DNA of 64,000 nucleotides from contig NC_043000.1 in the NCBI RefSeq assembly GCF_006345805.1, forward strand, positions 142,166,001 to 142,230,000, written 5' to 3'. The stretch is from Octopus sinensis (taxonomy: Eukaryota). Below, piece by piece: positions 108 to 26,412 of this stretch (position 1 is the stretch's first letter; each line of letters starts with the position of its first letter). Below the pieces are notes generated by a model that did no database searches, had not been told where the DNA came from, and saw only the letters and a program-made list of their open reading frames with translations. Both the position numbers and the translations under genes were made by a program.

Positions 108-210
108 TTAATCCCCAAAAATGAAGATAGGGTAAACAACAACGCAAGGACGTGGTAATGCAAAGTATTAAAAGACGCGCAGGGAAGGAAAGAAAGGGTG
201 TTTTACATGT
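108..210 (-). repeat. short interspersed repeat fragment abutting (TA)n; paralog of 35061-35158
   Basis: Shares ACAACAACGC(A/G)AGGACGTGG...AGTATTA...GACGC.CAGG.A.GAA with 35061-35158; both begin next to a (TA)n tract. Confidence 0.65.
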
Positions 211-247
211 GCGTATGAGTGCGTGTGTCAGTATGTATGTATGTATG

Positions 248-281
<34 letters not shown>

Positions 282-1469
282 TGTATGTATGTATGTTGAT
301 AAACGCGAGTGTATTCGTATGTATACTAACCCTATCGTTTCTTAATAACTATAGGATTAACAAATGCATACGTTAATTCAAATCGACATTGAGTTTATGC
401 ACTTCCAGTAAGATATGCTGTTACAATGTTTTATGTAAATATATTTCATTTTCTGCTTCTGTCATTCTATCTGACTCAATATGTTTATTTGTATATGTAC
501 ACATGTATATGCATGTATATGCATACAATCACAGCATATATGGAGAGAGAGCCCTCAACCATTCACGTAAATATAGATGAAGATATGTATGTATGGGTCT
601 GTGTATCTCATGATACTTATACATATACATATGTGAATATATATAACTTTCTGAGTATGCATAAATATACATGCATATATATGTACATATAAGTGTGTGC
701 GTGTGCGTCTGTGTGTATTTTTTATATGGGTTTGTGTGTGTGAATGTATATACATATACAAATATATACAAATATAGAATTCCATATATACATCTTACTT
801 AACGTATATAAAGTATAGGAAATCATATTGCTGCAATATTCACCTCAAGAGGTTTTCATGTATAGACGTATAGTGCTGAAAAGCAAACAAAAACGTATTG
901 GTAGCAGACGAAAAGTGTCTAGTAACGATGGTTGAATCGCCAGATTATGATATATTTTCTTTATGTGCTTCAAAGCCAAGAGTTTAAATTATCGACCATT
1001 GCTTCTCACTGAGGAAAGTCTTTGCGTTTTAACACTATACGTTTATGCAATGAGCTGCCTCAAGAAGAATACATCAGTTTATTATCTTTTGTAAAACACA
1101 CGTTAAGGGGGATATAGAGAATGCTTTATTGGGCCAATATGTATTCGGTCGCTAAAGACGAATTTTTACCTATACTGTGAGTTATTTGCAATGCTAGTGC
1201 TTTGTTAATCACAATTTTGCAATATCAGTAGAAGGAAAGCATAAGATTGATTGTAGATACTTGCTACTGATGACATGCAAAGGAATAGAAATTCTGATTT
1301 AATAATTTCCCCAACGCTGGTGAAGAAGTTTTGTTTGATACTGACACATTTTTCTGAATTTTAGTTCTTACGTCTACATGCGATGCTCACCAAAGACAAA
1401 TTCAGTTTTAGTGGTTTTCTGTATTATATATACGTTACGTAACGTATACACAATAGTTTGTTGTGAAAC

Positions 1470-1780
1470 ACTTATTTCTACTGCATTGAATGTGTTTTAC
1501 ATAGGATGTGTGCGGTGTCTAGTAGTACTATTTTCAGTATGTTATATACACTTGTAACTGCTGGTATATTTGTTATGTTTTTGTCTGAACAGCATTTTGT
1601 CATACCTAATGTGCCTGCTATGATAGGAATTGTTTCTGTTTTTAGACTCCACATTCAAGTTACCTCCATTTCCAGATCTTTGTATTTTAAAGTGTCTCCG
1701 TTTCTTTTAGTGTTGGCATAGTTTCTAGTGTATATAGATCCCAACTCTCACGAGTCCTTCTTAGCCAGGACTGTGCAGCA
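1470..1780 (-). mobile_element. Dong/R4-like RLE LINE, 3' end fragment (decayed)
   Basis: Minus strand reads KYKDLEMEVT*MWSLKTETIPIIAGTLGM...ILKIVLLDTAHIL and CTVLAKK, the C-terminal restriction-like endonuclease region of R4/Dong ORFs. Confidence 0.8.
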
Positions 1781-2150
1781 ACAAATATTCTGCTCGATAC
1801 CACAGATTTGCTTGTCCCTTGTTTAACCATAACCAGTTGAGCATGTCTCTTAGTGGTTGACGATATGTGCATCTCTGATCACGAGCAGAAGTGGTAGGGA
1901 AGCATTATAACCATGTGTTGAGAGGAATATTTTGACAAACTATCCAGAGACCTTTTGAGTGGAATAGGCTACTCGACCTGAAGAAAATTCTAACTGGGCC
2001 TCATCTTCAAGATCATGTGCTGTTTATCTTGATATGAGATCACCATGTCGCGCACATATCGTTGTGATGCATGTGCCTAGTGTACCCTTATCAGACGGGT
2101 AGTCATGATAGGTATACTGGGCTTTGATGACATGCACTGCTCTCTCACTC
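1778..2150 (+). mobile_element. partial copy of the 555-bp (AAT)n-associated non-coding element
   Basis: Reverse complement of much of 16486-17040 with internal deletions; ends ...CTCTCTCACTC followed by (AAT)n. Confidence 0.85.
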
Positions 2151-2166
2151 AATAATAATAATAATG

Positions 2167-2228
<62 letters not shown>

Positions 2229-2229
2229 T

Positions 2230-2260
<31 letters not shown>

Positions 2261-2265
2261 TAATA
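2151..2265. repeat. (AAT)n microsatellite
   Basis: Directly visible. Confidence 0.95.
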
Positions 2266-2269
2266 ACAA

Positions 2270-3495
2270 ACGCTTAAACTCATTAGCAATGACGTCGGGA
2301 TGGAGTTTGGCCTCGATAAGTGTGCTAAAGCAACGTTTCTAAGAGACAATCACAGACTTCCATTAAATTAGACACCGACACTACCATCAAGGAGCTTGAC
2401 CAACATGAAAGTTACAAATACCTGGGGATAAATGAAAGAGTGAGTATACAACATGCTACTATAAAGGGAAAAAGTAACAAAGGTGTACTATAAGAGAATA
2501 AGACTTATATTTAAAACTGAACACAATTCCAAAATTAGCATCGAGGCCACTAACATCCTAGCACTTCCAATAGTCCAATGCAGTATTAACATCATTCACT
2601 GGAATCCTACGGAGCGCCAACGCCAGGATAGGAAGACAAGAAAACTGCTATCATCTAAACGTAGATTCAGTGAAACATTTGACGAAATAATAAACCATCT
2701 CAATTCGAGATGCCCTGTGCCGACAACAAACGAATACAGAAACCGCCGCGATAGGGTAGAACAGTATTTACATTGGAAAATGTGGAAACAGTACAAAATC
2801 AGCACTCCTGCTTACAGGTATGAACATCATCCTGAGACAGTCGTTGAAGGCAAAAATGTTACAATCCTCTTGGATTTTCCAGTCAATACCGACATAATGA
2901 TGAAGGCTAATCGACCAGACTCTATCAATAAGGACAGGGAAGAAAATACTTGTAGATGTATAGGTGTAAATATATCTGTAAAGAACTTGAGAAATTAAAT
3001 AAATATAAGTACCTGGAAATTGAAATGTAAAATATGTGGCATCTTAAAGCGAGAAATGTTACTGTTATTGTGGTTGCCCAATATATGATATAAAAGGGAT
3101 GTCAGAAACATCTAAATAAAATACCAGGAGAACCATTTCTCAGAGAAAGAACTGTTCCTGTTATTGTGGGTGCCCTAAATTTGATATTAAAAAATGGATT
3201 TCAGAACCATATAGGCAAAAGCTCAAGAGAAGCATGCCTCAGAAAAATCCAAATGATTGTTCTGAGACGTACTGTCCACATCCTTAAAACAATCCTATCA
3301 ATTTAAATGTCTATATTGTATTACATGAAAATATTTCGTTACTGCTCCTGCCACTTCCCCTCCTCAATCTTTGAGTCATACTTTAACAGTTCTTATCCTT
3401 TACTCACACTAGGACGCTGGATGTATCCTGGCAAGTGATTGCAATAAACATGCAGATTAAAAATAACCAACAAACACAACAATCATAATAATAGG
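2270..3495 (+). mobile_element. Dong/R4-like non-LTR retrotransposon, 5'-truncated pseudogene (RT end, RHD region, PD-(D/E)xK endonuclease, 3' UTR)
   Basis: Motifs ISNDVGMEFGLDKCAK, SYKYLGINE, DRKTRKLL, RRDRVEQYLHWK, ILLDFPVNTD..KANRPD, KYKYLEIE with frameshifts and stops; AAT-like tail. Confidence 0.85.
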
Positions 3496-3559
3496 AATAT
3501 TAATTATAGTAAGATTATAGTAGTCTAACGCTATGTTTAACGAAAGTTAAATATCTAGT

Positions 3560-3960
3560 TCGAAGCGGGAAAGCATGTGTATATCATGTGTATCATATTG
3601 CAGGAGAAATTGCTTGCTTAGCACTTAATATTGACAGTAGAAGAAACAACGTGTCCCCTGACGAGAAATCTCTTTATTATAATCTTAACCGTTTCTGAAA
3701 CTGTCAAAAATCTTCAAAAACGCTTCACTAGATGAAAACTTATTTAGAAAAATCTTTTCTTTCAAACATAGGAAATGAAAACACCACTTCTGAAAATAAA
3801 TTTTTCTGGGAGCCCGAAACCAGGAATATTAGAGGCGGTATTAAATGGTGTATAATAAGAAGTACATTGCCATATAATGGGAGGAGACTAAAATACAAGG
3901 ACATTGCATATCCTTAGATCCAAATCTATCATATTAAAGAAAAGGAAAGAATTAATATAA
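3560..3960 (+). mobile_element. Penelope-like element GIY-YIG endonuclease remnant (Naiad-like)
   Basis: IFKKRF-like (frameshifted) followed by ENTTSENKFFWE...IKWCIIRSTLPYNG, resembling the PLE endonuclease C-terminal pattern TxLSKYIWELK...IKWxIL...PYN. Confidence 0.5.
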
Positions 3961-5221
3961 CTTAGAATTTTAAAACCTTCTCGAATAAACGGAGGATTTA
4001 TTAGTGTTCCCTTATATAAATTCTAGTGTCTGCTTTCCTTCTTCAAGTATAGTTAGTATATTAGTTAACCAGTATTAACTAGTAGTTATACAAATATTTG
4101 TTTTATCTAAGTATGTTATTTGATTATTTTATCTCGTTATTTATCAATTTTATCTGCTTATTTCTTCTAATCGTTTTATTAATGATTTTAGTTAAATTTC
4201 TAAATACTATTATTGTTAATTATTCTCATTACATTCTATTTGAGTTGAGGTTATTGTTATTCTTAAGTAATTTTAAAGTTAATTGTAATTAGATTCTTTA
4301 ATTGTTATTTTTGTAATTATGTTTAATTACTCTTTTATTCTTAATTGCCTTTAAATTTATTTTATAATTTATTGATTTATTTTTACCTTAGTTTTTAACT
4401 GAACTTGAATCTTAACCTCATTACAAGTATTTTAATTTCTCATTTTTATTCCTTTAAGGAAAATAATTCTTTTGGAATATAATACCTTCCCATGTAAATA
4501 ATATTGCAGTTATTTTCTGTTAGTTCTTACAGTAACTATTCTCTTGTTTTCTACTTATAGTTTATTTGCTAGATTTAATACTGATCGAATGACATCTCGT
4601 TTGGAACCTAAATTATTACATACTGATTAACTTGGTTCTACTTTCCTACCCTCTCTATTTGCGATGGTCATCAATAATTTAAATAGGATAATAATTTTTG
4701 TCATGAACACTCTTTAAGTTGTCGTGTGGAACTTAGGATATTAAATATGTAACACTTGTAGAATTATCTAATAAACACTGTTCTCAAGTAGGTCTGTAGA
4801 TATACCTCCCATACGTTTTACGCTGGTGAAATACCAAAAGAGATGTGATATACCTTTGATAAAGCTAGGGTGGTGTTAATTTTCTCTATCGCTATAGAAT
4901 CATCATCCATTAAATATGGTGATCGATTAATATGCAAGATTACTACATCGCAGAATTTTTTTAAATGCCAACGATTGTGAAACGTGCGTAAGCAAATTAA
5001 AGTGTGCACGTTTTTCCATCCTTTGTGCATTTCTTCTGTATTTTGTGAATTATACTAATTTATTTACTAATTTATTATACTAATTTATTTAAAAGTTTCT
5101 TTCGTTTTGCTGAATTAAGCCCGTATATGTTCTGTCAAAAACTGAGAAGTCCATCTTAGATATACTGAAAGAACGAAGCAAACTCTGACTTTCTTCGTAT
5201 ACCCACCCAGCCCAACCCCAC

Positions 5222-10659: not shown

Positions 10660-10915
10660 TTTGGCAAATGGAGACTGTAAGACACTTTCTGTATATGTAT
10701 GTGTGTGTATGTATGTGTGTATCTGTGCGTTTTATTATGTTTGTCCGCCACCATTGCTTGACAACCGGGGTTTCTTTGTTTGCATCCGTGTTTCGGAAAA
10801 GAGGGTGATATAATAAATACCTGACTTAAGAAATAAACATTGGGGCGATTTGCTACAATAAAACGTGCACGGCTGCGTCCAATGACTGAAACAGAAAAAT
10901 ATAAAGGATAAAGTT
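10660..10915 (+). mobile_element. degenerate SINE family A copy
   Basis: TTTGTCC...CATTGCTTGACAACCG...GATTTGCT...AATGACTGAAACA match the intact copy at 11992-12406. Confidence 0.7.
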
Positions 10916-11054
10916 ATACAAAGTAGATATAGGCATACACAGAGAAAACAGGAGCACACGCATGCCCCCCCCCCACACACACACAGTTATGTATGTGCTT
11001 ATGTATGTGTATATTTGGCAATTCAGCGCGTGTGTATATGTTGCACTTACTATA

Positions 11055-11598
11055 ATTTTAAAATTATATTTATAAAATGATATACTTCGTATTAATTTCT
11101 ACCTTAATTGGTTTTTCACTCTGGCTACTTGATAAAACCTTATATAGATAAAATATTATATATATACTTGAGTTTTATTGATAAATATTAAACTAGAATT
11201 CATTCAGTGCATTATTGTGGTTATTCACAAGTGGCTGAGATGAACAAACTAGATTTCTCACTTGTATATAAGAGCATATACTAATATGATATTTGTACAT
11301 CCTCTGTGGATAAGCTGTATTCGTATAGTATATATAAATGTTTATATTCATGTATTTGTGATTATGTCATACTGATGATACGAGAGTGTATTACTTCACT
11401 AACCTTGAAATCGTTCGATACATGACTAAACATTTTCAAACAGTCTTCTGTTCATTCTCTTAATTTCAGCGTGTGTGTGTATGTGATAAATTAGTTTAGA
11501 GCCATTTGACGTCTTCTTCCAGTGTGTGGCATTACCTCTCGTAATTGTCCCTATTAAAATTTTATAATTATAGTTATAAAATTATATACTTCGTATTA
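11055..11598 (+). mobile_element. hammerhead-bearing non-coding element with 40-bp terminal direct repeat (retrozyme-like or PLE pLTR-like)
   Basis: Direct repeats 11055-11094 and 11559-11598 (37/40 identical, period 504); internal hammerhead at 11366-11426; homologous to 25921-26380. Confidence 0.6.
11366..11426 (+). ncRNA. type I hammerhead ribozyme motif (partly decayed)
   Basis: GTCATA-CTGATGA-[28-nt stem II with AGTG/CACT]-GAAA-TCG TT CGA-TA-CATGAC; complete core, stem I GTCAT/ATGAC with one mismatch at its base. Confidence 0.6.
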
Positions 11599-11664
11599 TA
11601 TAAATATTTATTTATATTTGTATCTCTCTCTCTCCCTCTCTCTCTCTATATATATGTGTGTATG

Positions 11665-11703
<39 letters not shown>

Positions 11704-11991
11704 TGTGTTAGTGTGTGTGTGAGTATGCATGAATGTTTGTACATATATACACGGGTTTGACAAAATAATGGAAACATTATCTTGCATCGCAAGTGTAGAA
11801 TGCGCCACATCTGGTGCCTTTTTAAACAGTCCCTTATCATACAATGGCATTTCACTCCATTTCACAAGGTATAGCTCGATACATGTAGCATTCTGGTATT
11901 TTGTAGACAGAACTAATCATAGAATCATTTAGAGATAAATTACACTTACAATCACAAAAATAAATTACAACGACAAAATAATATATAGAAT

Positions 11992-12406
11992 CAGGAGTGG
12001 CTGTGTGGTAAGTAGCTTCTTTACCAGCCACATGGTTCCGAGTTCAGTCCCACTGCGTGACACCTTGGACAAGTGTCTTCTACTATAGCCTAGGGTCGAC
12101 CAAAGCCTTGTGAGTGGATTTGGTAGACGGAAACTGAGAGAAGCCCGTCGTATATATGTATATATATATATAAATATATATGCGTGTGTGTGTTTGTGTA
12201 TCTGTGTTTGTCCCCCTAGCATTGCTTGACAACCGATGCTGGTGTGTTTACGTCCCCGTCACTTAGCGTTTCGGCAAAAGATCCCGATAGAATAAGTACT
12301 GGGCTTACAAAGAATAAGTCCCGGGGTCGATTTGCTCGACTAAAAGGCGGTGCTCCAGCATGGCCGCAGTCAAGTGACTGAAACGAGTAAAAGAGTAAAA
12401 GAGTAA
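11992..12406 (+). mobile_element. tRNA-derived SINE family A, full length
   Basis: A-box-like TGGCTGTGTGGTAAG, B-box-like GTTCAGTCCC, MIR/CORE-like ACCTTGG.CAAGT, internal (TA)/(TG) tract, (AAAAGAGT)n tail; several paralogs in the window. Confidence 0.9.
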
Positions 12407-13488: not shown

Positions 13489-14190
13489 CACTGAACCGCA
13501 GAAGAAACGCGAGACGTGTGTGGGTGGGTGTGAAATATGCTTTCATTATGTCAGAGATGAATTTTGATAAATTTAATAAAAATCAATTTCTTAGATGCTC
13601 TTTGACCACAGCCTATGGGTCGTTTTTATCTGGTAATGGGGGTATCCAACACATCGAGATTGTAAGGCATGACATATTCAATACCAAGTATGCCCTCCGT
13701 GCATGTTCAAAACCACCATATACCATCAGTACACTGAGTGCATGAGGCGGTCTACAAAAGCTATTGGCACCTGTGCCCACACCTTGAAGAAAACTACCTC
13801 CTGTTCCACATGAGTTGTCGGACTTGGGACCATCTGGTTCAGCCGTCTCTGGATTTCATCCCACATGTTTCCATTCGGGTTCAAATCTGGGCTGAGAGCC
13901 CGCCATGGCATGGGTCTTATGTTGTTCTGATGCAAGAAGTCCATGGTGAACCTGGCCGTGTGAGAGGGAACATTATCCTGCTGGAACACGTGGCTATGGT
14001 GACGCATGAAGAAAGGCATGATGTGAGGTCTTAGGACCGGGTGAACGTAAACCTGGGCTATGATGTCATTCCCTCTACCTGCATCAACATTTTGGAACAT
14101 ATGGGCCCAATTCTCTGATTTAGGCCTATAACACCCCAAATCATGATGCTTTGGCCACTCCACATGTCTCTCTCCATGACACATGCGTCT
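13489..14190 (-). mobile_element. Tc1-like transposon 3' portion with decayed DDE transposase
   Basis: VFQQDNVPSHT...WRALSPDLNPNGNMWDEIQRRL (catalytic E lost); terminus TA-CACTGAACCGCAGAAGAAACG. Confidence 0.85.
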
Positions 14191-16350
14191 CTGTATCGTA
14201 TATCAGCCGAAACGTTGTGTCAACAAATTAGATGAGGACAGATATCCATCAAATGTAAATAATATACATTATGTACATAATACCTCATATCTTAAATATA
14301 GAACCTCATTAAATATGAGTAACGGTGTATTTAATTATTTATATTTCATTATCTATGTTATACCGCACTTAACTCTATGTTGCGTATGCAGATCTCTCTC
14401 TAGAAAACCCACGGAAAATATTTCTAGTTTTCAAAAATATGGGAAAATTGACATTGAATATATGAAAAAGGAATGCTACGCTTTAGAATGTATTCTTATC
14501 ACTAAATAATATAGAATAACATCTTGGGATACATTTTCAGTTATTTGAATAACAAATTAAATCAGACGCACAAACAGAGGTATTTTACATATTTTTTTAA
14601 TATTCTGCTACTACATTTTCTATGATAATGTATTTCACCTTAACTGTGATTACGTTATTTAAAAAAAAATTCGTTTTTGAAATATTTATTTTCTTCTTTG
14701 ATATCCTGATAAAACCTTCATGAACTCTCAGACAGTTATAATGATATTTAGATTTAATATAGTTAACAAAGATTCACACACACGCTGTTGATGATATCTC
14801 TCTATTAGTTATTCAAACGTGTTCTAGCAACAAAATTTCAAAAAAATATTTTATTCATTTTCATTTCTTCCAAGTATATTGGAACATACTGTTTTATTCA
14901 CATCTACATATTGCTAGTATCCAGATATATCATTAATTTCCAATAACATTCTTTATACGCTTGATATTTTTTTCACCAGAAGCTAATTTTTTCTAAGAAG
15001 TGATATAGATAAATTAGCTGGTTGCAAGATAATTAGTGGTGCTTTTCGAAAATCATAGAGATTTTATTTATGTTTTTGTATCATGAGAATGGAAATTATT
15101 TTGAAAAATGTGCTAAAAAGAGTGAATGATGAGTCGTTATTTTCGTTTATTATTCTCTGCTAATGTTGCTTCAAACCTTATTAGATTCCCATAGTTGAGA
15201 AACTGTTCCTAATATAATAATGATTGATATAACAAAGGTCATTTAAATGCCAGACGAGATGCTTAGTGTCTCCAACTAGGATAAAAGCACTTCTTAAAAG
15301 GCGCCATAAACAATAGTGCATTTTGTTTTTCCGGAAATGTGAGAGAGACTATTAGCTTTATCCTATAAAGTGTTAGTCAGTGAGTAGAAGGAATATCGGT
15401 GTAACTATTTTTTCCTTCTTGGATTAGAAAATATGGAGGTCAACAAAAAAAAACAGAAAATAAGACCAAATATATTTCCATAAAAATGTAATTTTGTATA
15501 ACACATTTGCATACTATATTTTTGACAATATTCTGTAAAATAGGTTGAAGTAATAATGACAGACATGCTGTTTCCTCATGATATATTAAATGATCGTTGG
15601 CAGGAGATACTGCTACCATCTAAGGAGAAAAATACGTGAATGGCAAGTTGGTTCAGTTATCAACGTTTTAGTCACGAAATATGAATGTTAGAGTGTGTAG
15701 CATTCTTATAAGTTACCTTTAGGCGATGCAGTATAATTCATAGAATATGAGACTGTTTGCTGCAAGATTTTAGTTCCCCTCGGTCTGAAATCATTCGAAA
15801 GGAGTTCCACGGGTATAAATATAAACATACAATATAATATACAATAACATACATTTACCATTTACATGGTGAAATGTATACTTGTGCACTTTATTTAAAT
15901 AATCTGCTACCTAAGAAATACTCTTAATAGAGATCGGACAAATACAGTTGGGTTTTAATAATGACATCTAATGTGGACACGCCAGCAACTGTGTAAAGCT
16001 ATCGATTCAGCTGATACCATCGCTGCCAGTATTAAACTGATAAGTTCTGTTTGTTTTCTCGACTTCGAAAGGACGAATGGCAAAGCTAACCTCGATAGGT
16101 TTTCAACTCACAATGTAAAGAGCTGGAACCACTATCATAAACTCTATTCCGGTGCTGTAACTATTTTACAATGAAGAGATCGTAGGTGATCGCACTGGAT
16201 CATTACATCCCAGAGGATTTTGCAGTTATAATTTTCTGTAATTCGTTCTGGGTTTTGATCATACCACGGTTTTCCTCTGGGGTTTGTTCACACCACGTCC
16301 TTGTTCTTGGGGTTTATTCATACTACGTTTTACCCTCAGAACACGTCTTT

Positions 16351-23039: not shown

Positions 23040-24512
23040 CTCTTATTCGATAGGGTCGGCTATCGCTACTTGGAAGCTGTCCTGAAAGCTAGTAGTTTCG
23101 GACCCATTTTCAGGGGCTGGATCGCTCTAATGCACAGAGGCACCTGTTCAGTGGTCGAAGTAAACGGCCACCTATCGGAGCCGTTTGGCATTGCATGCTC
23201 GGTCCGTCAGGGCTGCCCGTATTGGTACTCGAGCCAGTGCTGCGGAAGATGGAACAGCTAAGAAGCATCCCATAGCAACTGAGACAAAGAAGGGTAGTGC
23301 CAGCATGTGCAGACAACGTCACTGACATAGTGTCAGATACTCCGAAGTGGAGATGTTCGGCACCATCATAAAAGAATATGAATCGGCGGCAGGGGCTAAA
23401 ATCAATGCCGACAAATCAGTTGGTTTGCGGTTGGGCTTCAGGAGAGGGATGAAGATGCCATCGGATTGCGTCGTCGGACGCTGGACCGACGGGCCAGTTA
23501 CAGTGCTTGGGATCTGGTTTGGTCCCGACCTTCACATTGATAAGAACTGGGAGGAGGTGACGAACAGGGTGGCCAGTTTTACCCAGAAATGGGCTGAAAG
23601 AAAACTGCCTCCGTTGTTGTTTATGGCCTGAACATCGTGCCTTGTCCCGGTTACTACTTTTCCAAATTGGAGTGTCTCTTATTTAAATTCTTCTTATTTA
23701 AAGGGACGCGTTTTAATGGTCAAGCGGTAAGTCTGTTGTCAGCATCTCTGAGTGGTGGATTAGGTATGCTGTGGCTCCTAATGCGCAGACACACCCTTAG
23801 GTTAAGCTACCTACAACGATTTCTGGACGGTGAGCGTGCGTGGGATCCTTTTGTGAGACTCGTCTTTCTGAAGCTCTTCTCCTTGATAGATCTGCAGTTC
23901 TGGGTGAAGAGAAGTCTGAAACTACGCGCCTGGCACCTAGAATATCGTCATGCATTCACAACCCTCTACCAGCCGGGCAATGGAATCTGTAGATGTTCTG
24001 CTTTGGAAATTTATAGAGGATTAGTGGCGGGACGTGCAACGGCGTGCTCGGGGAGACTCTGTGCGCCGACAAGAACGAACCGGGTAATCTGTTCCGGATG
24101 ACTTTCCCGTCGGGATCTATCATGGATGATTTCCAGATGTCCTTGGCCTGGCCGTGCTACCGTGGGCACTGCCAGTTTGAGATAAACTCTGTATGCATGG
24201 ATGTTCTGTCCGACTGGCTTGTCCGACGTGCCTGCAGAGTAAGGAAACTGTTCTGCACGCCCTCGTTCAGTGTCCGGGCATTGCTGACTTGAGGGGTTAT
24301 GCTGAACAGCAGCTGTCACGTGTGGTACGGAATTCGTCTGTCAGCCAAGTCTGTAGTGATGATCGCACCACGGCCCTCCTTCAATCGGGCAGGTAAGGCA
24401 CTTTTCCTTTGCCTGGTAGCTGCGGTGAAAGAGGTTCTTTGTTGGACAGTGCTGAAAGGCACAGGGACAGATACATTCCTCTTTGGTACAGCTCTCATTG
24501 ACTTTATAAGGG
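23040..24512 (+). mobile_element. L1/Tx1-like LINE ORF2 pseudogene (RT and C-terminal region)
   Basis: FDRV...FGPIFRGWI...VNGHLSEPF..SVRQGCP, CADNVT (YADD-like), GAKINADKS, LGIWFG, GGLGM, CPTC...ETVLHALVQCP; GC-rich island with many frameshifts. Confidence 0.85.
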
Positions 24513-25440: not shown

Positions 25441-25920
25441 GATATACCGAAGCGCTCAAGAACATTGGGCTATCGGAGGGATACGAAAAATAATGAGAAG
25501 CAAAAAACGGGTTATCAATACTTATATAATAAGATATATTCCGTTGTAAATATATTACGTGCACAAAATCGTACAATAAAAATATATAGATATATAAATA
25601 TTTCAAAACTACATTAAAAATATATAACTATATATTAATACAAATACACTGAAATTGTTAAAAGATTAATATTTCAATTAAATCTTGTAAAAGCTTGGAT
25701 TACACTTTCTTCTCTAACACTTCACTTCTAATATTATTGATAGCATCATATTAATACTACTCTATAAGAAAAAATACATAACACACGCGTCCGTTAATGT
25801 TAAGTGTAGCTCTTTATAAAGTCTATCAATTAGGAATTCTACCACATTCGCATAACATATGTAAACCTATCAGTTGCTAACTTCCCCGAAGAAGGAGGCG
25901 ATGGTTTTTATTCCGAGGAA

Positions 25921-26380
25921 ACAAGTTATACTGAGATGCAATTCGTAAAAGCCCGGAATTTACATAGATGTATAAAAGGTGAACATTTATGTATGCTACG
26001 TCAGATACATTGGTTGTTCGTCTGGTATGTTGATTTTTGGTCATTCATTATAAATCTTGAATTATGCGTGCACTGACGATTAAGAAGTGCATTTCTGCAC
26101 TAATTATGAAATCATGTGATTTGCAGCTGAATTCTGTTTTTAAGCGGCCAGCTTCGAGAGTTCTATTCCCTCGCTTTCGGTACGATGTGTTTATTTATTT
26201 TGGTAGTTTTGACTTTAAGAGTCCCTCCTAGCGTGTGGTATTTATATATAGTAATGCCCTCTATATGATATAAATAAATATATTTAAGAGAAAAATTGTT
26301 GGATTTTTCTCTTATGAGGTTTTTCACGCAAACTACTTGATAAATTCATATAAAGATTTTATCCTATTTTTAAGTTGTAA
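25921..26380 (+). mobile_element. second, circularly permuted copy of the hammerhead-bearing element
   Basis: Shares ACAAGT..CTGAGATG, a TATA-like box, the hammerhead, AG.GTGTGG.ATT...GTAAT and GGTTTTTCAC....CTACTTGATAAA with 11055-11598; ends at (TA)n. Confidence 0.6.
26059..26134 (+). ncRNA. type I hammerhead ribozyme motif
   Basis: TGCA-CTGACGA-[TTAAGA AGTGCA TTTC TGCACT AATTAT]-GAAA-TCA TG TGA-TT-TGCA; stem I extends via GC/GC and GAATT/AATTC. Confidence 0.65.
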
Positions 26381-26412
26381 ATATATATATATTATGTATA
26401 TATTATATATAT

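Follow-up and report, generated by a model that had tools for sequence, protein, structure and literature searches.

A multi-copy, non-coding 504-bp hammerhead ribozyme unit in Octopus sinensis, probably a non-autonomous derivative of a Penelope-like element

A 64,000-nt stretch of Octopus sinensis DNA (hereafter the window) contains a copy, designated A, of a non-coding 504-bp unit carrying one hammerhead ribozyme. Established directly are the existence of the unit and its repeated occurrence in the genome, the conserved structure of its ribozyme, the permuted order of its parts in relatives and the nature of its 54-bp terminal redundancy as element sequence. We consider it rather probable that copy A is a decayed member of a multi-copy family of non-autonomous derivatives of an endonuclease-bearing (EN+) Penelope-like element (PLE), mobilised in trans by a PLE reverse transcriptase (RT) via tandem RNA.

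The unit is bounded by a direct repeat, positions 11055–11094 and 11559–11598 being identical at 37 of 40 letters at a spacing of 504 bp. This repeat, reported in a preliminary description of the locus, was borne out and extends to 11041–11094 and 11545–11598 (46/54). Over 44 nt the best match is 40, whereas 200 dinucleotide shuffles average 25.9 and never exceed 29. Both redundancy copies lie on the forward strand; the 5′ copy contains an 18-bp palindrome (11051–11068), and the 3′ copy contains an 11-bp AT hairpin (11559–11584) and is followed by TA-rich and microsatellite DNA. A second 11-bp AT-rich hairpin, different in sequence, is found at 26287–26312 in a relative within the window (copy B), both hairpins being placed between the 3′ hairpin block and the 11110-type block described below. 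Directly left of the element, positions 11021–11040 resemble the internal segment 11464–11483 by eye (17/20), a TG-rich likeness that is probably due to chance.

Paralog contigs from sequencing runs read through the repeat, so the redundancy is element sequence and no target-site duplication (TSD); it is internal both in copy B and in these contigs. The arrangement is thus a partial-tandem direct repeat of element sequence, and the 54-bp redundancy is likely a very short pseudo-LTR (pLTR). Another reading takes the 40–54-bp repeat for a long TSD, or for an AT-rich chance match, on either side of a hammerhead fragment that was inserted. It draws on the very high AT content of the repeat and on the long TSDs that are possible in non-LTR retrozymes according to the sections of PMC7229834 cited here. 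However, shuffles give at most 29/44 as compared to the 40/44 observed, and paralog contigs continue across the segment at periods of 488–504. The hairpin and the conserved block are moreover 73 nt apart round copy A and 67 nt apart in copy B, where about 19 nt would be expected with a 54-bp TSD. This reading is largely refuted, and we regard it as highly improbable. A search for TSDs gave nothing beyond 5 bp of TA-type letters.

Copy B (25985–26394, forward strand) is a diverged, permuted relative, which matches 11291–11583 at 196 of 286 positions and 11095–11190 at 65 of 92. The first of these alignments scores 84, with shuffles reaching a mean of 28.6 and a maximum of 43.5; weak similarity upstream of copy B may reach approximately 25908. 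Since copy B runs from the equivalent of 11291–11583 on into that of 11095–11190, the order of parts is circularly permuted between the two copies. It reads in copy B as a TATA-like box (~25970), the hammerhead (26062–26130), the hairpin block, the 11110-type block and (TA)n. Comparison of the DNA upstream of copy B with the first 160 nt of the unit (11041–11200) showed no continuation, the score being 29 versus a shuffle mean of 29.7.

Several further parts of the unit, all on the forward strand, can be delimited. A stem-loop at 11195–11245 (fold z −2.7; 3 of 200 shuffles equally good) lies 5′ of a TATA-like box at 11265–11272, where TATATAAG starts at 11265. The box, noted in the preliminary description, is present as sequence and represents a putative promoter; it aligns with TGTATAAAAGG in copy B and with the loose-end letters of paralog contigs. 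The block most widely common in the family, 11110–11149, is 32/40 identical to 26318–26357, the next best site in the window reaching 24/40. It has the highest summed depth, position 11120 being covered by 45, 35 and 25 contigs in three DNA runs, and it directly precedes the common 3′ departure point described below, making it a candidate "tail" or recognition site. At the other end, a conserved 3′ block (11485–11550) aligns with 26200–26262. The motif with a hairpin proposed here earlier held up as a conserved block, but its small hairpin (11528–11550) is weak when taken alone (z −1.9; 12 of 200 shuffles equally good). The 504-nt unit as a whole folds somewhat better than its shuffles (z −2.4; 1/100).

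The type I hammerhead motif of copy A, which is decayed, spans 11362–11429 on the forward strand, with a predicted cut after 11420. Its core is complete, in agreement with the preliminary description: CTGATGA at 11372–11378, GAAA at 11407–11410 and the cleavage triplet AUA ending at 11420. Helix I is formed by 11362–11371 and 11421–11429, helix II by 11380–11405 and helix III by 11410–11419. Both copies possess the CUGANGA/GAAA/NUH core and helices I–III, with helix I open-ended, as in type I hammerheads. A hammerhead descriptor applied to both strands of the window (128 kb) returned two sites, 11372 and 26073; the strict version yields 0.005 sites per shuffled window, and two sites occurred in 0 of 200 shuffles. 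A looser candidate at 1267, the third in the window, did not pass the stricter descriptor and was discarded, and a minimal-hammerhead scan of the window produced no site. The Rfam search reported no hammerhead at 11372 or 26073, neither at the gathering score nor at E ≤ 10.

No gap interrupts the alignment of the two hammerheads across the core, and 7 of 22 pairs are changed on both sides while still pairing, four of them in helix I, two in helix II and one in helix III. In total, 41 of the 44 pairing cells of the two copies are paired, with 20–43% in slid-partner controls; core and stem pairing are therefore kept between relatives, which the preliminary description had named as a point on which its reading depended. 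Because the comparison involves two sequences and a structure named by the analyst, with two bulges, it leans in favour of selection on the hammerhead structure and no more. All three unpaired cells belong to copy A: an A·C at 2.1–1.1, and a C·C and a U·U in helix II. Among the 40 of 108 variant rows listed, paralog contigs carry G at 11381, pairing with C11404, in 8, 6 and 4 contigs of the three DNA runs (492 of 582 depth in run X1, hence not all), so a pair broken in copy A is restored there.

A hammerhead model built from copies A and B (R1) found no site in the window beyond its two training copies, and gave 18.7 bits (rough E 0.011) against a Hydra-type PLE hammerhead. A family-style hammerhead pattern retrieved 132 loci, 12 of them viral and 120 from metagenomes; by blastn, not one aligned to the unit. 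As relatives these loci were rejected: of 100 scored with R1, the best reached 23.8 bits with broken helices, and they were taken as chance matches.

The predicted energy of the hammerhead fold in copy A is +0.3 kcal/mol, versus −13.2 for the minimum free energy (MFE) structure. Copy B, with −11.0 versus −18.2 kcal/mol, is nearer to the active fold. The helix III arm is palindromic and forms no hairpin alone, the self-duplex being predicted at −7.2 (A) and −8.6 (B) kcal/mol, which makes the hammerhead of copy A appear suited to dimer folding. Small dimeric variants of PLE hammerheads have reportedly been studied by Luense and co-workers. A dimer-type design of helix III is described in PMC4209133. 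Copy A is predicted to be inactive, given its one hammerhead, its three broken pairs and an own-promoter transcript that would cover only about 300 nt of the unit; it is probably a fossil.

Repetition of the unit was assessed from contigs aligned to 10760–11620 at ≥80% likeness, using 4 of 24 runs (three DNA and one guessed to be RNA). Three DNA runs of three organisms contain 413, 397 and 156 matching contigs, counts that include flank repeats and microsatellites; most are less than 95% alike. In X1, the depth is 139–4617 in every bin of the unit, compared with 51 for single-copy DNA, a depth that is not a copy number. The unit is thus covered in its whole length by a multi-copy, diverged family. 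The left flank (10789–10962) is itself moderately repeated, several of its bins reaching about 10 times the depth of single-copy DNA, with no joint to the unit. A SINE-like repeat, which we take to resemble octopus SINEs, is located at about 11990–12250, with a partial copy of its tail at 10690–10790; this repeat and the microsatellite load would fit an octopus host. The run guessed to be RNA provided 7 short, partial contigs, which miss the hammerhead core and show no joint, and gives no evidence either way.

Contig joints connect the 3′ part of the unit with its 5′ part. Among the 15 of 25 joints listed, at least 8 distinct ones lead from 11517–11588 back to 11046–11120, with net periods of 488–504; at least 7 closing joints occur in X1 and at least 5 in X3, at least 4 being common to both. 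Contig 26 of run X8 contains 11177–11440, then 105 nt, then 11041–11127, and one paralog contig covers 11041–11255. The unit is in this way closed into a circle by junctions across different paralog contigs. As for a tandem dimer, no contig covers any unit position twice, the contigs being short and the window holding one unit. At least two joints are with the opposite strand (11046|11363 and 11064|11495).

At 11149, among the loose ends listed, 12, 11 and 4 contigs of the three DNA runs leave the reference and continue into TA-rich letters. Their first 9 letters are identical among them, 8 of these being common to copy B, which points to a shared 3′ end some 20 nt beyond 11149; the departure could partly reflect copy A's own divergence instead of true ends. 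The 3′ end of copy A (11598) is 60–75 nt away from this common end. The preliminary description expected copies with permuted start and end points. Order is indeed permuted relative to copy B, but the ends look partly fixed, with 11–12 contigs per deep run leaving at 11149.

The locus itself is present in organism B, in contigs with 0–1 differences across both boundaries, and a contig of organism D crosses the left boundary; the insertion is therefore common to these organisms. An empty insertion site was not seen in the contigs of either.

No coding capacity was found in the unit, as the preliminary description had stated: there is no ORF, and a Pfam search of 12 frames around copies A and B gave no meaningful hit. 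Protein-homolog searches with read-through translations of both regions were empty or returned noise. The segment 11062–11175 was considered as a protein remnant and rejected, its single match being a low-complexity repeat protein. An autonomous EN+ PLE is expected to have an ORF with RT and GIY-YIG domains, and neither such an ORF nor a remnant of one was found in copy A or beside copy B. A Hydra-type endonuclease profile, prepared from seven PLE ORF ends (L133–L139), and tblastn detected nothing in copy A or upstream of and at copy B. The contigs L133–L139 come from two bacterial MAGs and carry Hydra-type PLE ends, hammerheads and (TA)n; they are evidently animal host DNA.

At 3728–3957 on the forward strand, the profile and tblastn did detect a remnant of a Hydra-type PLE, a C-terminal GIY-YIG segment that is decayed and frameshifted (best tblastn E 4e-4 within the window). 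This remnant is not followed by a hammerhead and does not resemble unit A or B. Two Hydra-type coding patterns had no match in viral contigs. Other mobile-element traces in the window include a non-LTR-retrotransposon-like ORF remnant at 2465–2998, a Tc1-type transposase-like segment at 13726–14202 and an L1/Tx1-type LINE-like segment at 23326–24101, assigned by eye. On the forward strand at 25916–25948, 125 nt before the hammerhead of copy B, ten codons and a stop resemble one Hydra-type ORF end. This 10-residue likeness ranks tied second of 127,936 windows, with the motif having been chosen post hoc. The DNA before copy B was rejected as a Hydra-type ORF end, two homolog searches, the profile and tblastn all being empty.

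These results bear on the possibility that the unit is a by-product, the repeated parts being pLTR fragments of an autonomous PLE and the unit a rare internal-deletion ("gutted") copy that hardly spreads itself. Summed depth is uneven (139 to 4617 in X1) with 11150–11190 thinly covered, copy B does not continue upstream into A 11041–11200 (29 versus 29.7), and the post-hoc ORF-end likeness would fit a coding region before the hammerhead of B. The sections of 10.64898/2026.07.22.740005 cited here likewise describe PLE insertions as mostly 5′-truncated single repeats. However, one paralog, found in two organisms (contigs 3 and 17) with 27–28 differences from copy A, bridges the junction between the 11149 block and the promoter region, from which it follows that the ORF-less unit exists beyond this locus. 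At 11170–11172, where cover is lower than elsewhere in the unit (only 2 paralog contigs in X1 and 1–2 in X3), a second contig adds to this ORF-less junction at one or more other loci. The seven-sequence endonuclease profile and tblastn are moreover empty at copy A and upstream of copy B, yet they detect 3728–3957. We consider the by-product reading quite unlikely.

We favour a mechanism in which the unit is copied by a PLE enzyme from longer-than-unit RNA. Such RNA would be transcribed at a source locus of tandem units, starting from the TATA promoter inside a unit; in these transcripts, the hammerhead with its palindromic helix III would cut mainly as a dimer. The PLE enzyme would nick TA-rich DNA and start reverse transcription at a set site within the RNA, and the RT would then traverse a complete unit and run 54 nt into the one preceding it. 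Its stop at that point would account for the very short pseudo-LTR. Because the cut site is intact in copy A, its template would have been either uncleaved tandem RNA, which we prefer, or a re-ligated circle; copy A alone cannot separate the two. The preliminary description explained the locus as a retrozyme-like monomer plus overlap. Reverse transcription over more than one unit proved the right class of explanation, while the footprint is that of ordinary PLE pseudo-LTR and tail anatomy.

Published accounts of PLEs, in the sections cited here, agree with several points. Insertions are described as forming partial tandems, with pLTRs and inversions, to which a tail of 30–40 bp may be added (10.1101/2021.04.23.441226). 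For a purified PLE, in vitro work shows two internal start sites of reverse transcription, a preference for AT-rich targets and independence from hammerhead cleavage (PMC11167929). By analogy, the inverted joints, the common departure point at 11149 and the (TA)n end of copy B look like PLE traits, and Penelope-style fixed 3′ ends appear to fit the departures at 11149 better than free permutation. The signs that we counted for a PLE origin are the U·U at the base of helix II, the 18.7-bit score of R1 on a Hydra-type hammerhead and the endonuclease remnant elsewhere in the window; counted against it are the AUH triplet and the 60–75-nt offset of the 3′ end of copy A, as compared to the published 30–40-bp tail. 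No autonomous partner sharing the terminal sequence of the unit was found, so the PLE link comes from anatomy, not from homology.

The circular variant assumes that paired hammerheads cut tandem transcripts into 504-nt monomers, which are ligated, and that a borrowed RT goes once round and 54 nt further. Copy A spans an intact cut site with one unit plus overlap, its order is permuted relative to copy B and the paralog contigs, the helix III arm self-duplexes (−7.2 and −8.6 kcal/mol) while having no fold alone, and the unit folds somewhat better than shuffles (z −2.4; 1/100), all of which would be compatible with a circle. RNA circles are also known for mussel, coral and axolotl retrozymes (PMC7229834). 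However, the same footprint can be left by uncleaved tandem RNA, the dominant substrate of a purified PLE in the cited part of PMC11167929, and the common departure at 11149 before TA-rich DNA suggests set ends. Furthermore, 504 nt exceeds the 150–450 bp typical in PMC7229834, and 8 of 9 frog retrozyme dimers assayed did not cleave (10.64898/2026.07.22.740005). We therefore hold the circular variant to be possible, though unlikely.

A more elaborate version can be built on two speculative sites flanking the hammerhead on the forward strand. A splice-donor-like site at 11328–11333 is mutated in copy A and visible in relatives: in X1, 13 paralog contigs have G at 11327 and 15 have it at 11332, and copy B reads G|GTATGT at 26025. 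The acceptor-like counterpart is a pyrimidine tract ending in TTTCAG at 11450–11469, the AG of which is absent from copy B. In this version, the family is an active cephalopod retrozyme whose 500-nt circle is reverse-transcribed past its origin, and the hammerhead lies inside a 142-nt spliceosomal intron (11328–11469), so that splicing would compete with self-cleavage, one outcome being a transcript free of the ribozyme and the other a circle. We consider this very unlikely.

Returning to uncleaved tandem RNA as the preferred template, the unit can be compared with three published groups, in each case with the sections of the sources cited here. Non-LTR retrozymes, which produce circular RNA in coral, mussel and axolotl, consist of short units that contain type I hammerheads (PMC7229834). 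Like its metazoan counterparts, the octopus unit is short, non-coding, AT-rich and repeated, and has one type I hammerhead with a dimer-type helix III; dispersed monomers are common among them, and a mollusc host (mussel) is known (PMC7229834). Consensus lengths of 51–972 bp with many monomers are given for retrozymes in 10.64898/2026.07.22.740005, with cleavage in 1 of 9 dimers assayed. Unlike the typical non-LTR retrozyme, the octopus unit is 504 bp long (versus 150–450 bp) and decayed, and has a longer helix II with an internal loop. Its U·U at the base of helix II is shared with the axolotl retrozyme HHR_Amex2 (PMC7229834), so this feature is not diagnostic.

Among Hydra-clade PLEs, that U·U (10.1–11.1) occurs in 14 of 25 families by our own count from File S2 of PMC8557442. 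The octopus unit resembles this clade in its sense-strand hammerhead with a full helix III near the 3′ end, an upstream TATA-like box, TA-rich flanks and inverted joints; all 25 families have a 3–4-bp helix III, and most are located in (TA)n (PMC8557442). The octopus unit differs in having no RT/GIY-YIG ORF and in its AUH triplet, all 25 families having GUH. The distance from motif start to 3′ end is about 250–330 nt in the octopus unit, versus about 90–210 nt in nearly all listed Hydra-clade families, and the published octopus element Hydra-1_Obim has a hammerhead and 3′ end unlike those of the unit by eye (PMC8557442).

The pLTRs of Penelope/Poseidon elements share with the unit a partial-tandem repeat with two possible 3′ ends, a repeat that likewise carries a TATA box and a hammerhead (PMC11167929, PMC3846280, PMC4209133). 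The palindrome at the 5′ end of the repeat measures 18 bp in the octopus unit, and 18 and 38 bp in rotifer Penelopes. In contrast to the octopus unit, Penelope/Poseidon hammerheads are mostly minimal, with little or no helix III, and their pLTRs flank an ORF; their tails are 30–40 bp long, whereas the two 3′ ends of the octopus unit are about 60–75 nt apart. The best reading is that the unit works like a non-autonomous PLE or retrozyme monomer, known here from sequence and short contigs, the strict non-LTR retrozyme being defined by tandem copies and circular RNA.

The preliminary description knew of no account of this family. We found none either in the literature on octopus and cephalopod hammerheads, retrozymes and Penelope elements, a scope that leaves Repbase and Dfam aside. 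The family may be catalogued in Repbase, in Dfam, in the library of PMC13282606 or in the supplements of PMC7229834 or 10.64898/2026.07.22.740005. The octopus repeat paper PMC13282606 reports 31 recently active Penelope-like families, with ribozymes unmentioned in its main text. Animal retrozymes as non-autonomous PLEs derived from PLE pLTRs are already in print, in the cited part of 10.64898/2026.07.22.740005; this kind of element is already published, and no new class is opened.

Two copies in one window provide a clean covariation case for a hammerhead that is missed by Rfam models. If the best reading is true, the family would form a compact test set for distinguishing RNA circles from uncleaved tandem RNA with internal priming, and a cephalopod-like host would join the lineages that carry PLE-derived retrozyme monomers.
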